A stretch of 64,000 nucleotides of DNA, taken from assembly GCA_044892525.1 (NCBI GenBank), contig CM097887.1, positions 106,432,397 to 106,496,396 of the forward strand, read 5' to 3'. The first letter of the stretch is position 1. Every line of letters begins with the position of its first letter. Under the pieces are notes generated by a model. The model saw only the letters and a list, made by a program, of their open reading frames with translations, had not been told where the DNA came from and made no database searches. Below, one piece after another: positions 1 through 5,679 of this stretch. Position numbers and translations under genes: made by a program. The DNA is from Schmidtea polychroa (lineage: Eukaryota).

Positions 1-1032
1 TTTTTGTTTTCCAATAGCAGTAAAATATTTCCACATTTTATTTTTTAATGTTCTATTTAATCTTTCAACCACAACTGCTTTTGCTTCGTTTTCTGTTGAA
101 TATAATTTAATATCATTTTCATTTAAAAACTTTGTAAAAACTTTGTTATAAAATTCTGTTCCTTTATCACACCATAAATATTTTGGAATTCTTTGATGTT
201 GTTCAAATATATTTTCAAATGCTTCTGTAATTGAATATCCTGTTTTATTTTCTAAACACCTTGCAAAAGCAAATCTTGTATATAAATCTATTACTGTTAA
301 AATTATTTTATATTTTTCAGGGTCTGATGATTTAGGCATAAAGACTAAATCAGCAGACCATGTTTGATCTTTTTCATGTACTTGAACTTTTAAATATTTT
401 TTATTTTTTCTAAATTCATGGTGTAATTCGTTGGCATATTTTATTTGTGATTCTGTTGGGGTTTGTAAGGGTTTATTCTCAAAGAGTTGATTCTCAAGGG
501 ATCTTTCAACGTCTGCTTGTTCAATAATCCTTTTATTAGCAACATCTTTTGCTTTTCTAGGAAGTCCTGCTCCTATGAAAATCTTACCTTTCATTGCTAA
601 TTTAACTAGAGCTCTTTGAATCTTTTCCTTGCTTGATGGATTTTGTATATTATTTAAATCATGTATTAAATTCACATCAGCAACATGTCTATCTCTAAGA
701 TCTTCAGAGTTGTAAGCAATGTCATGTTTTAAAGCTGCTTGATCAATTCTATTTATTGGTTCTTCTCCTTGTTTAGGATTATTATTTTCATCTAATCTAA
801 TATCTAATCTTGTTCCTGGTCCAGTATAATTGTGACGGAATAAATGTCTTTCACCTGGATATTTTTCTGTAGTAAAAGGTTTTAATATTGTAGATGTTGT
901 TTTTGAAGATTGTAGATCACCTCCTGTTCGTGTAATATCGCCTCCTATATGTTTTTTAGTTTTGAGATGACTTGCTTTGTGATGTCTTGTAACTTGACAA
1001 TTACAAGTTTCGCATCTCCAATATTTACTCAT
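1..1032 (-). CDS. C2H2 zinc finger + parvovirus-type PLA2 + DDE (rve) integrase fusion; 344 codons visible, 3'-partial, absent from the ORF track
   Basis: Manual translation from ATG at 1032 is open to base 1: MSKYWRCETCNCQVTRHHKASHLKTKKH (ZnF); HNYTGPGT...INRIDQAALKHDIAY (PLA2 Ca-loop and HD); NELHHEFRK...DQTWSADLVFM...LTVIDLYTRFAF...LWCDKGTEFYN...VVERLNRTLK (integrase D,D,E). Confidence 0.9.
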   Translation of the reverse strand, partial: MSKYWRCETCNCQVTRHHKASHLKTKKHIGGDITRTGGDLQSSKTTSTILKPFTTEKYPGERHLFRHNYTGPGTRLDIRLDENNNPKQGEEPINRIDQAALKHDIAYNSEDLRDRHVADVNLIHDLNNIQNPSSKEKIQRALVKLAMKGKIFIGAGLPRKAKDVANKRIIEQADVERSLENQLFENKPLQTPTESQIKYANELHHEFRKNKKYLKVQVHEKDQTWSADLVFMPKSSDPEKYKIILTVIDLYTRFAFARCLENKTGYSITEAFENIFEQHQRIPKYLWCDKGTEFYNKVFTKFLNENDIKLYSTENEAKAVVVERLNRTLKNKMWKYFTAIGKQK

Positions 1033-1061
1033 TTTAAAAGTTTTTTTATGGGGGAATCTAC

Positions 1062-2357
1062 TTATGAAGAATCTCCCCTAACATTTTCAATAATTGAAAT
1101 CTTTCCACCATATAATTTCATTTCTATTTTCTTTTCTTCTAATATTAATGTATATACTTTAGCTTTAAAATTAGAATCCTTTGTTACATGAAGTGTAACA
1201 TCAACATTATTTATGGCTAGGCGATCATCTTGGTCTGAAACATTTATACAAAATATAGAATATAAATTTTTGAAATCTTCTAAACTTAATTGCGGTTCAA
1301 CTTTGAAATCATAACATGTTTCAATATAATTTAGATATGGGAATATGTTTTCATTATTTTCAATATTAAATTCCATTCTATTTATTGGATAATAAGAACT
1401 ATTTAATTGAATTTGGATTGTTTTTAAATTATCATTTCCAATCTTTTGAATAAACAAGTTGTTATTTTTTTGGAAAGATGAATCTACTTCTTTGAATCCA
1501 ATCAAGATATATCTTGGTCGGTATGCTAAATTTGCCACCTTTATAGAATATGTTGAACCCTCTGTCATACTAAATTCACTACAGATTCTATTTAAATAAT
1601 TTACATTTATAGACTTGTTGGAATTTAATCTTTCAAGGAGTTTGATTTCAGAATGTGGATTTAATGTCCGTTCAGGTATATGCAATTCAAGTGTTGATAA
1701 TTTTAATTTAGCTTTTGTATCTGCAGCTCCATAGAACAATCTTTTATCACCTTCTAGTCTATTACAGATGAGTTCTATAAAAACATTATAGAGCACCCGG
1801 TTATAGTTTTGAAGGAATCCGAACAAGTGTTTTAATTCAAAATAACCTTCAAATTTTTTAGATTTATAAAGTTCAGCTCTTTTATAATAACCATAATTTA
1901 TATCTAAACCATCTTTATCTAAATCTCCTTTATTAACATCAGGAATCCAACCTGTTAATTCACCATATTCATTTTTATAATCACAACCAGTCAAAATAAA
2001 ATTTAACATTGTAGAATATACTCCTGGATGTAAAACAGTTTCAATTTCTGATGATCCTAGTTTTAATCTCATGTTGAAGAATAAATTTGGAAAGAAATTG
2101 TTTTCTAGGGTTATATCTTTGTTTGCTTCAATTTCTAATTCAATTTTATAATATAATTTGGCATTACAAATATCTATTGGGTTTGATGTTTGAAGAGATT
2201 GAAAAACTATATCACCCCTACGATTTAAGTTTGCAATAGATCCTGAAGTTGGAGAGATTTTTAAAATATCGATTTTTTTTATTTCATGAGTAAATTCTTT
2301 ATTATAATCAAGATTTAATTTATTTTTTTCTTGAATTTTAAGATTTATATTATTCAT
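1062..2357 (-). CDS. Polinton/adintovirus major capsid protein (putative double jelly-roll), 431 aa
   Basis: Intact ORF directly upstream of the integrase; motifs ENNFFPNLF, IETVLHPGVYSTML, GWIPD, YYPINRMEF resemble Maverick MCPs; size fits. Confidence 0.75.
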   Translation of the reverse strand: MNNINLKIQEKNKLNLDYNKEFTHEIKKIDILKISPTSGSIANLNRRGDIVFQSLQTSNPIDICNAKLYYKIELEIEANKDITLENNFFPNLFFNMRLKLGSSEIETVLHPGVYSTMLNFILTGCDYKNEYGELTGWIPDVNKGDLDKDGLDINYGYYKRAELYKSKKFEGYFELKHLFGFLQNYNRVLYNVFIELICNRLEGDKRLFYGAADTKAKLKLSTLELHIPERTLNPHSEIKLLERLNSNKSINVNYLNRICSEFSMTEGSTYSIKVANLAYRPRYILIGFKEVDSSFQKNNNLFIQKIGNDNLKTIQIQLNSSYYPINRMEFNIENNENIFPYLNYIETCYDFKVEPQLSLEDFKNLYSIFCINVSDQDDRLAINNVDVTLHVTKDSNFKAKVYTLILEEKKIEMKLYGGKISIIENVRGDSS

Positions 2358-2394
2358 TTTTATAATAAAAATTTAAAAAATGACAAAAATCCGA

Positions 2395-2478
2395 ACTCCG
2401 ATAGCGCAGTGGGAATAGACTGGCATTGTGGTTCAAATGGATAGCGGTTCAAATCCTAACTACGGTTAGTTTTTTTTT
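2395..2478 (+). ncRNA. tRNA-like RNA polymerase III cassette, copy 1
   Basis: A-box TAGCGCAGTGG (2402-2412), B-box GGTTCAAATCC (2446-2456), T9 run (2470-2478); cloverleaf stems imperfect. Confidence 0.55.
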
Positions 2479-2629
2479 AACATAAAATAATATTAAAAAT
2501 TTGAAAATAATATTGAAAATGGTGTGGGTATCTTAGATTTATATTTTATTTTATTTATTTTTATTTTATTTTATTTATTTTATTTTATTTTTTTATTAAT
2601 TAAAAATTTAAAAAATGACAAAAATCCGA

Positions 2630-2712
2630 ACTCCGATAGCGCAGTGGGAATAGACTGGCATTGTGGTTCAAATGCTAGTGGTTCAAATCACATCTGAGGT
2701 TAGTTTTTTTTT
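2630..2712 (+). ncRNA. tRNA-like RNA polymerase III cassette, copy 2 (235 bp downstream of copy 1)
   Basis: A-box TAGCGCAGTGG (2637-2647), B-box GGTTCAAATCA (2680-2690), T9 run (2704-2712); 9-bp stem ACTGGCATT/AATGCTAGT. Confidence 0.55.
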
Positions 2713-3200
2713 CAACATAAAATAATATTAAAAATTTGAAAATAATATTGAAAATAATTTTTGAAAATAAATATTAAAAAAATATATAGTGTGGGTATCT
2801 TAGGAAATAAATCTTGTTTATTTTATTTATTTATTAATTAATTAATTTTTAAACATAAATATGAAAAAAAAAATATTGAAACGGGTGATGGTGGCGAACC
2901 GGTAATTATCGCCACCAGTCTTTCGAACACCCCCGGATCGATTCTATAATGTGCACATTTATTTCTTGGTTGTTTTCGGACCTCTTTCGGATTCGCTTTC
3001 GAATTCATTTGTACTTTCGAGCAGCACACTTAAAACGCCGATGAAATCGACTTCGTGAGCGAGAAGCGAATAATAAGGTGTGCTGCTATTATCGAATTGA
3101 TTCTGATATATAAGTCTGGCCAGCTTGTATATTGGAAGAGATTTGATAAACGAAAGAGGTTGAAATAAAAAAAAAATGATCCGGATCAAAAAAAAACTGT

Positions 3201-3241
3201 TGAGAGGACAGTGAAAAAAAAAAAATACCACTGTCCTCTCA
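3201..3241. repeat. 13-bp perfect hairpin with A-rich loop
   Basis: TGAGAGGACAGTG (3201-3213) / CACTGTCCTCTCA (3229-3241). Confidence 0.9.
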
Positions 3242-3300
3242 GAGCAGTTTTACTATTTTCATAAATTAGTCAAATAGCAACTTGCTAGTTGACATCCTCA

Positions 3301-3579
3301 AGTAGTGTGTTTATATCCCTAACGACCGCAAGCCGACAAACGTTTTTCATAGTTTTATCAGTATTTTTTTCCCCGTTTTATTAATATTTTTGTTGTTTTT
3401 TTAATATTTTTGTTGTTTTTTTTAAGTCTTTATTTTGAAACCAAAATGTCTTCAGAATAAAGAAATTAAAAGATATAGGTTTTTAGGGGTTTTAAGTGTT
3501 TTTTTTACGTTTATGGGGGAAAAATAGGTATAAAAACAAGTGGGAGGCTTGTGGTCGTTAGGGATATAAACACACTACT
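3301..3579. repeat. 34-bp Polinton-type inverted repeats (33/34 identical) enclosing 279 bp
   Basis: AGTAGTGTGTTTATATCCCTAACGACCGCAAGCC at 3301 and its reverse complement ending ACTACT at 3579; flanks TCCTCA and AGGGTA are not a TSD. Confidence 0.9.
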
Positions 3580-5679
3580 AGGGTAGATTTTAACTTTAAC
3601 TTTAAAGAGATCCTTGAATAACTTTAATTTTAAAGGATTGTTTGGATTTAAGACGTGCGAATCCTGCCCAAAGTGTAAATATGATATGGATGGATGGATG
3701 GGTTGTTAGTTTGTTTTCCGATGATGAAACCGAAGGTGAGTGAGTGTCACGAACAAATAAGATGACGCGTCATCTAACAAGTTCAAATATCGATTAGACA
3801 CTCAGATAGTAAGAAGTTCACCAAACATCGCGATAAAGAGTTTTATACACACGAAATTACACAGTTGGACAGAAAATAAATCGATGCGTGGGCAGGGGGC
3901 AGAGAAAATATGGTAGTGGTGGACGCACATACAGCCTGTTATAAGGACCCGATCGAGAATTTGCAGTCTGATTTCTAAAAAATGTCGAATCCAATCGATT
4001 ATCCCTGGTGAAATAATAAGGAAGCAGGAACATCTTCAGTCGGCCGTTATCAAGCGTCCAAGCTCGAACAATAAGACAAACAGAAGCCCCCTGAACAGTT
4101 CAGTCCGTGGCAAGAGTGGTTGTTGAGAAAAATCGAGGCTGCTCCCATTTGTGCATGGTACACTTTAAGATCGACAAACCAACATCGCAATAATTACCAC
4201 ACGCCGCGTTCTTTCAGTAATATTAATCAATTGCAGTCGAACGTTTCGCCGATGACCTTGCTTAAAATGAAAATAAATATTAAAATTTCGTACCCGATAA
4301 TGAATAACTTACTAGTAATCGATGTCAAGTTGAAGATAACCTTGAAATTTCCCCACAAACTGAGAACAATCTCTATTTCAGTTGTAATCCCATCTCGTAA
4401 TAGCCAATCCATTGAAGACTGACTGCCACGTCAAAACAAGTTGTTAAAAATCATACACCAGCTGTGAATCGTCTCTATTTCCGTAGCGCTCGATAAAATA
4501 AAAAAATAGCCCACCACCAATAAATGAGTCCCATGTGATATTATCTAATGCCACGTCACTGAGATAGGTAGGCAGATGAGGAGAAGATTCTCTGCGAATG
4601 TGGGGTGTGTAGAGAGAGAGAATCTCTACCCGCTACACACCTCGCCAAAATAAGCCAAAGGGAATGTGCGAAATTCCATTTCGACTAAAATATCATATGG
4701 CAAATCAATACAAATTAGAGGCTCCAGGTAAATGCTCGCGTAAGGTACCATCAAAAAGCATCTGGTTTGACGTCAGAGAACCGCTGCCAACGGACAGAGG
4801 GGATATGTTGAAGATAGAATTATGCCCATCCAGTAAGATTGATTAAATATTTGCAAATCGTAATAATAAATTTTCATTTTTTATGACGAAGTTGGAACAG
4901 ATCATGATTCATGGATAGGAATTTAGGGATTTGTTGAGTGGGAGGTAAAACAAAAACTGTCGGGGAAGGAAAAACATCTCTTGGTCTAAACTAGGGCACA
5001 TTCCTCATGAACCAAATGTTCTATTCATCTAACCCGTTATCGACAATCACCATTGGAATTTTTATTTAGACTATTTCGACTTTTAACAGTCCTTATGCTC
5101 TTAAAGGAAAAATAATGATTGTATACTCCAAGTGACTAGCTTGTGTCTTGGGAATATAATTGTAGAAAATCACCTTTTATTATGTAATAGATAAATGAAT
5201 CGGGGGAAAACCCAATATGTACCGGCACAAATGTTTGGTTGTTATCTTTCGAAACTGCCAAACTCAGTGATTCGAGTAAGATTCGGTCCTATGAGAAATT
5301 TCCTTTGAGGGTATTTTTAATAACTACATCCAGCGCCGTCTCTTCCATTGTGCTAACTGTGCTAAGCACAGGGGGCGCCGTAAATTTTATAAAACCCATA
5401 AATTTGATAAAATAATGATGTAATATATAATATTAATATATATTAATATATGTATATGTATCTGGAGCTTCAATTACAGTGATGAATAAAGAAACATGGA
5501 ATAAAATTGGCAGTCCACGGTTAAGCAGCAGTGAAATCAAAATATGTAGAGTTTTTCCAGGAACTCAAAAACCACAGAGATTTACAGAAGCAAATGTTTA
5601 TCGTGTTGGGTTGTCAACTAGGTCAACACTCATTCACTCTCTACTATGGGATGAAGGTCAATCAATCTAAGCAAACCAT

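Follow-up and report, generated by a model that had tools for sequence, protein, structure and literature searches.

Element-specific tRNA-like Pol III-type units beside the capsid gene of a Schmidtea polychroa Polinton

The VA RNAs of adenoviruses are about 160 nt long, are composed of a terminal stem, an apical stem and a central domain, and have been proposed to descend from tRNA (PMC7589676). For murine gammaherpesvirus 68, the TMERs are described as a cluster of diverged tRNA-like type-2 Pol III units (PMC8223928). Among Polinton-related genomes, 558 tRNAs were reported for 8,300 PLV and virophage genomes (PMC12220804), and tRNAs are flagged in a figure legend of the work on MELD viruses (PMC8502044). 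A tDNA heterochromatin barrier in fission yeast was described to need TFIIIC and Pol III (PMC2040200), and in budding yeast, Pol III complexes were reported to alter neighbouring Pol II transcription (PMC4228148). Polintons themselves were identified as targets of piRNA and H3K9me3 silencing in a planarian (PMC8532177).

Intact tRNA genes in Polinton-related viruses are already known, as are type-2 promoters in TMERs and VA RNAs. No description of degenerate Pol III/tRNA-like terminal units in Polintons, Mavericks or adintoviruses was found in the literature, and supplements, Repbase reports or subscription papers may mention them. The control of animal Polinton genes and their survival of host silencing form a largely unknown field, for which Pol III signals kept at the start of a capsid gene provide a concrete and testable handle; the family concerned has over 3,000 type-A/D-like units in a single genome. 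Here, such units are described for a stretch of 64,000 nucleotides from Schmidtea polychroa, referred to as the window, in which an original prediction had seen two tRNA-like Pol III cassettes and a possible analogue of VA RNA. The short units are real and appear to be under constraint at the level of their boxes; the function given to them below is a proposal.

Like VA RNA I and II, the short units have a type-2 layout with a box A, a box B and a T-terminator and are present more than once, and their carrier, a virus-like element of linear dsDNA, has pPolB and a jelly-roll capsid in common with adenoviruses. They differ from VA RNA in being ~77 nt long, in sharing no fold, in giving no VA match in Rfam and in lying at the end of the element, facing outward. 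Since VA RNAs are about 160 nt long with three conserved structural domains, the units fail as members of the VA family. The layout of a TMER is a tRNA head plus hairpin. A possible counterpart is a third unit, designated E, together with an adjacent stretch with a predicted fold, whereas in the short units T9 directly follows the T-arm region, and a miRNA hairpin and a triplicated A box are absent.

With the tRNAs of PLVs, virophages and MELD viruses, the units share the location of tRNA-type genes inside Polinton-related genomes. However, those tRNAs were called by Rfam or ARAGORN and were read as translation aids, whereas the units fail both tools; scoring below the thresholds of tRNA finders, they are missed by standard annotation. 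For the yeast barriers at tDNAs and TFIIIC sites and for ETC sites, the function is described to reside in the A/B boxes and the Pol III machinery, not in an RNA, and the same may hold here. The yeast sites are host loci, whereas here a mobile element would make use of such sites at its own ends. Finally, tRNA-derived SINEs also have a tRNA-derived A/B-box head and thousands of genomic copies, but the units are mobilized together with the Polinton, terminate in T-runs, and have neither A-tails nor TSDs of their own.

The carrier Polinton and the short units of the window

Positions 1-3579 of the window constitute one end of a complete 14,037-bp Polinton, for which pPolB, an rve integrase, a DJR capsid, an A32 ATPase, TIRs and a 6-bp TSD were identified as hallmarks of Polintons and adintoviruses (Table 1). 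The Polinton context had been predicted correctly, and the terminus was located at 3579. By Pfam, neither an adenain-type protease was detected in the carrier nor an element-encoded TBP among 9 ORFs. A young family of very large size is indicated by 97 capsid matches scored in the genome at 97-100% identity and by 3,204 and 1,358 exact matches to the type-A/D and type-C motifs of the units, respectively. The TIR of the window copy starts and ends with inverted AGTAGT-type motifs and is thereby itself a small palindromic unit. The hairpin just inside the TIR is predicted to be equally stable on both strands and may be a DNA-level signal.

Table 1. Features at the Polinton end contained in the window
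Feature	Position	Strand	Remarks
Integrase gene (rve) with PLA2-like domain	1..1032	-	extends 360 bp past window start
Major capsid protein gene	1062..2357	-	431 aa, double jelly roll
Tandem duplication, 235-bp	2313..2755		encloses both units and AT-rich flanks; 88% identity (2313-2520 vs 2548-2755)
Type-A unit 1	2393..2478	+	A box 2402-2412, B box 2446-2456, T9 2470-2478
Type-A unit 1, inner B-box copy	2428-2437	+
Type-A unit 1, 5-bp hairpin	2456-2469	+
Type-A unit 2	2628..2712	+	A box 2637-2647, B box 2680-2690, T9 2704-2712
Type-A unit 2, inner B-box copy	2663-2672	+
Third A/B-like unit E	2884..2976 (start approximate)	+	A box 2892-2902 within 9-bp hairpin
Unit E, B-box variant GGATCGAT	2935-2942	+	43-nt tRNA spacing
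Unit E, T-run	2973-2976	+	only T4
Predicted multibranch RNA, about 190 nt	2979..3162	+	terminal stem, then A-rich run; compensatory pairs
Near-perfect hairpin/palindrome, A-rich loop	3186..3260		just inside TIR; z -7.9 on +, -7.3 on -
Terminal inverted repeat of window copy	3299..3579		about 280-310 bp; terminus at 3579
Target-site duplication, 6-bp	3580..3585		second copy at other end, 14,037 bp away

The predicted pair of A-box/B-box/T9 cassettes is present on the + strand. Each unit comprises ~77 nt plus the T-run, with an A-to-B gap of 33 nt in unit 1 and 32 nt in unit 2, and the distance from A-box start to B-box start is 43-44 nt in both, compared with 42-44 nt in the sister types described below. 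A strict pattern of A box, B box and oligo-T terminator has no match in the 64-kb window other than the two units, and none in any of 200 first-order resamples of it. On the opposite strand, 45 bp separate the start codon of the capsid gene from the first A box, so that the head-to-head placement assigned to the cassettes was borne out. Following each unit, a 15-nt motif, GTGTGGGTATCTTAG, is found at window positions 2522 and 2789 within an otherwise very AT-rich spacer.

As had been anticipated, the units are not functional tRNAs. No tRNA gene was found by ARAGORN in the window, and an Rfam search of positions 2200-3700 gave neither a tRNA nor a VA match at E<=10. The His-like anticodon loop TTGTGG that had been assigned to both units turned out to be the start of a second B-box copy, GTGGTTCAAA; this spelling occurs in 30 of 213 type-A copies and in only 1 of the 94 copies that were not chosen by the type-A motif. 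A functional tRNA-His was rejected on these grounds. The divergence between the 3' parts of the two cassettes had been read as having arisen between them. It did not arise after the duplication, the 3' parts being alternative haplotypes that occur family-wide and are shuffled among copies.

To what the units belong was analysed on three samples of loci. Seventy of 178 matches to a 16-nt motif of the type-A unit were inspected, a few of them being the two units of one element; an element gene lies beside the unit at 68 of the 70, and either a gene or at least 150 bp of element DNA at 69. For type C, 50 of the 1,358 motif matches were inspected, of which 48 have an adjacent element gene and all 50 lie in element DNA. 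Starting from the capsid, 40 of the 97 listed copies were examined, and 39 of them carry one to three units directly upstream of the capsid gene, in the order BCA (22 copies), A (14) or AA (3); the one copy without a unit is interrupted by unrelated sequence. The units are fixed parts of the element, neither a free SINE nor working tRNAs. A free high-copy SINE outside Polintons was rejected on the 120 motif-chosen loci, among which no free-standing copy and one doubtful case was seen, and neither a poly-A tail nor a TSD is visible on the cassettes, as the original prediction had noted. Nor are the units absent from sister Polintons. At the doubtful locus (L231), a type-D unit and a second short unit are accompanied by 106 bp of element DNA.

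At the polymerase end, a type-A unit faces the polymerase gene in 6 of the 18 copies for which this end was found (20 examined), and 4 of these 6 units lie inside TIRs of 860-1,030 bp. In the window copy, the TIR is short and the polymerase end carries no unit. Since many copies, the window's included, are without a unit there, the units are not needed at both ends. Outside this genome, no capsid relatives were found in viral_contigs, and 34 metagenome loci with distant capsid relatives contained no A/B pair and no tRNA, with at least 1 kb upstream available in only 11 of the 34 and the element ends unplaced.

Unit types, tRNA ancestry and conservation of the boxes

Four diverged types of short unit, A to D, have mainly the boxes, the tRNA-like spacing and the T-run in common. 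When unit 1 and types B, C and D were compared in register with one another, the A box was identical at 9-11 of 11 positions and the B box at 8-11 of 11, compared to only 13-20 of 33 positions in the spacer. A tRNA ancestry is clear for sister type C only, which, as judged from its sequence, is a derivative of tRNA-Cys: it aligned to the tRNA-Cys(GCA) array of the host with a score of 47 (best of 500 shuffles, 26), and with 26.7 bits it gave the best Rfam tRNA score of all types, below the cut-off of 29 bits. In type C, the D and T arms are largely kept and the other stems are broken. The scores of type A against Cys (33; best shuffle, 23) and of type D against Lys (30; best shuffle, 21) are driven largely by the boxes, and among the three host tRNAs compared (Lys, Arg and Cys) no source was identified for types A, B and D. 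The host tRNA genes are organized in long tandem arrays, with units of 281 bp for Cys, 424 bp for Lys and 278 bp for Arg; for the Cys array unit, 1,000 motif matches were obtained (arrays at L195-L200, G000:C1:269.25 Mb; L115-L137; L138-L144).

Constraint was assessed on an unbiased set of 94 type-A copies that had not been chosen by the type-A motif, a shared variant being one present in at least 3 copies. Shared variants were identified in 1 of 20 box columns versus 24 of 47 other columns (Fisher p=0.00025), the columns not being independent lineages. Rare variants do reach the boxes, with 10 events in the 94 copies, and the single A-box variant that is shared conforms to the consensus. Fixation is as strong in the inner B-box copy, with shared variants in none of its 10 columns. 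A McDonald-Kreitman-style contrast of shared and private variants on all loci, which is biased by the motif-chosen loci, was not significant (p=0.28), and the contrast was redone on the unbiased loci. Types B and C reside in one young block, so that constraint on their middles is not readable. For type A, a T-run of at least 7 is present in 202 of 213 copies, and the GGTTAG-type 3' end is invariant. Variants of types A and D were also observed with a third B-box copy, or in shortened form, the A box being separated from the B box by only about 10-17 nt (L035, L178, L231 and L105), which indicates that the B-box segment duplicates and deletes repeatedly.

The conservation of the boxes is not accompanied by a shared RNA fold. 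Single-sequence folds of the window units were no better than shuffles (z -0.5 to -1.1), and acceptor and anticodon pairing is lost. For an alignment, 21 of the 23 type-A variants seen at least twice were used, two length outliers being left out. RNAalifold gave -5.3 kcal/mol, with a compensatory change in none of 14 consensus pairs, so that the check by covariation across copies turned out negative. A cloverleaf placed by hand in rough registers paired 44.7% of cells, no better than shuffles, and a shared fold for type A was rejected. The 5', middle and 3' haplotypes, each taken as binary, occur in all 8 combinations. Four pairs between the 5' and 3' ends are kept in 17-21 of the 21 variants.

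Of the proposed VA-RNA analogue, the element-intrinsic Pol III-type units stand, and the VA-like product does not, given a length of ~77 nt and no shared fold. Because no conserved fold exists, the VA-RNA reading fits the two short units poorly, and for these a DNA-level role with TFIIIC and Pol III is, from their sequence pattern, likely the better explanation.

Unit E and the adjacent folded stretch

Downstream of the short units, the A/B-like unit E shows a comparable pattern of conservation. In 176 copies, shared variants were identified in none of the 8 columns of the B-like motif, in 2 of 11 columns of the A box and in 47 of 87 remaining columns. The stretch behind it, positions 2960-3170, is predicted to fold with -72.2 kcal/mol (z -5.9) on the + strand and with -48.3 kcal/mol (z -3.8) on the - strand. 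In 22 copies, which were picked by the authors to span the divergence, the structure derived from the window pairs 93.1% of cells, and 7 of the 12 pairs of helix 4 are changed on both sides. The covariation score and the count of doubly changed cells both lay above all 500 shuffles, whereas the count of doubly changed pairs (8) was not above the shuffles (406/500). Most of the compensatory changes trace to one lineage split.

The folded motif has 2,284 exact matches in the genome, many of which form inverted pairs about 14 kb apart, corresponding to both TIRs. At 30 of these loci, unit E is present in 29, a short unit upstream in 27 and an element gene in 27. In 162 of the 176 copies, unit E is followed by a T4 ahead of the fold. 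Unit E together with the fold (2892-3162), neither of which the original prediction had listed, would be a better VA or TMER candidate than the two short units, and through the predicted RNA it could be examined directly whether relatives of adenoviruses also possess VA-like RNAs.

Possible roles of the units

The leading explanation, to which we give a little less than an even chance, is that the short units are tRNA-like type-2 Pol III promoter cassettes that act mainly as DNA landing sites for TFIIIC, TFIIIB and Pol III and not through a folded RNA. It is based on the element-specific position, the tRNA-type layout, the conservation of the boxes and the absence of a shared fold, all of which were observed. 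Host TFIIIC would bind to the A and B boxes, with type A offering a second B box, and would load TFIIIB onto the AT-rich sequence that separates the unit from the start codon of the capsid gene; Pol III would transcribe outward and produce short U-tailed RNAs (~80 nt). With this complex in place, the beginning of the capsid gene would remain poor in nucleosomes and protected from silencing or from read-in from the flanks, a role that tRNA genes have in yeasts, and in copies with long TIRs the same would apply to the polymerase gene. On balance, the adjacent Pol II gene could be either opened or repressed. Binding of TFIIIC would also turn the units into thousands of potential insulator sites scattered through the host genome.

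The conservation of the boxes would be equally expected if the RNA mattered in a sequence-tolerant way, and the T8-9 terminators, the invariant 3' end and the match of four pairs between the ends point to the production of a discrete RNA. The active product might be the ~80-nt Pol III transcripts themselves, abundant 5'-triphosphate and oligo-U RNAs that would titrate RNA-defence or RNA-binding proteins of the host and need no fixed fold, in loose analogy to VA RNAs, EBERs and TMERs. Such a role, which we consider somewhat unlikely, would account for the complete layout of a transcription unit with strong terminators and for the presence of several diverged types per array, as in TMER clusters, and gammaherpesvirus ncRNAs reportedly share function without sequence conservation, as a preprint title has it (10.1101/2022.05.09.491269). 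The units lack a long duplex and a conserved fold, however, their halves are freely shuffled, their length is half that of VA RNA, and the conservation of an additional B box at an unsuitable distance is more readily accounted for at the level of DNA. A larger RNA could instead come from unit E, with the short units as helpers that concentrate TFIIIC and Pol III while unit E reads through T4 into a VA/TMER-like RNA of ~190 nt. The A- and B-like boxes of unit E conserved at tRNA spacing, the strand asymmetry of a fold kept by compensatory changes, and the co-occurrence of unit E and a short unit with the folded motif agree with this. It is nevertheless distinctly unlikely in view of the T4, a valid VA terminator, in nearly all copies, the non-canonical B box of unit E and the derivation of most compensatory changes from one split, with the 8 double-changed pairs not above shuffles; moreover, the fold might instead form in a Pol II transcript or in single-stranded DNA.

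The units might also have no role, being decayed tRNA genes or SINE heads that were captured once, and then homogenised and duplicated by recombination between copies. The descent of type C from tRNA-Cys, the variation in copy number, type and TIR length, and the evident recombination are in line with such passengers. If decay were neutral, the boxes and terminators would not be expected to survive in four types with spacers of only 40-60% similarity, and neither would the contrast between 1 of 20 and 24 of 47 columns be expected; the 120 loci without a free-standing copy, one doubtful case aside, also argue against this explanation, which makes passengers quite improbable. A combination of the landing-site role with an RNA is conceivable as a two-part counter-defence module, in which the promoter-only pseudo-tRNA units would keep piRNA-guided heterochromatin away from the capsid and polymerase genes and unit E would produce a structured VA-like decoy of ~190-280 nt against small-RNA defence; we regard this as unlikely.

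Several further observations concern the carrier family. The polymerase gene of the window copy begins with a C2H2 zinc finger and is split into two ORFs of 808 and 607 aa (L102:58-4359). Among subfamilies, both the length of the TIRs (about 280 to 1,030 bp) and the terminal sequence differ. In one set of copies (L081-L094 with L155-L161), the capsid is 97% identical but the polymerase only about 50% identical to that of the window element, with TIRs of ~375 bp, an apparent module exchange between Polinton lineages. A different Polinton-like family, with a 407-aa ORF and a 2.9-kb inverted repeat, abuts the polymerase end of a sister copy (L110/L109, G000:C1:271.112-271.120 Mb).
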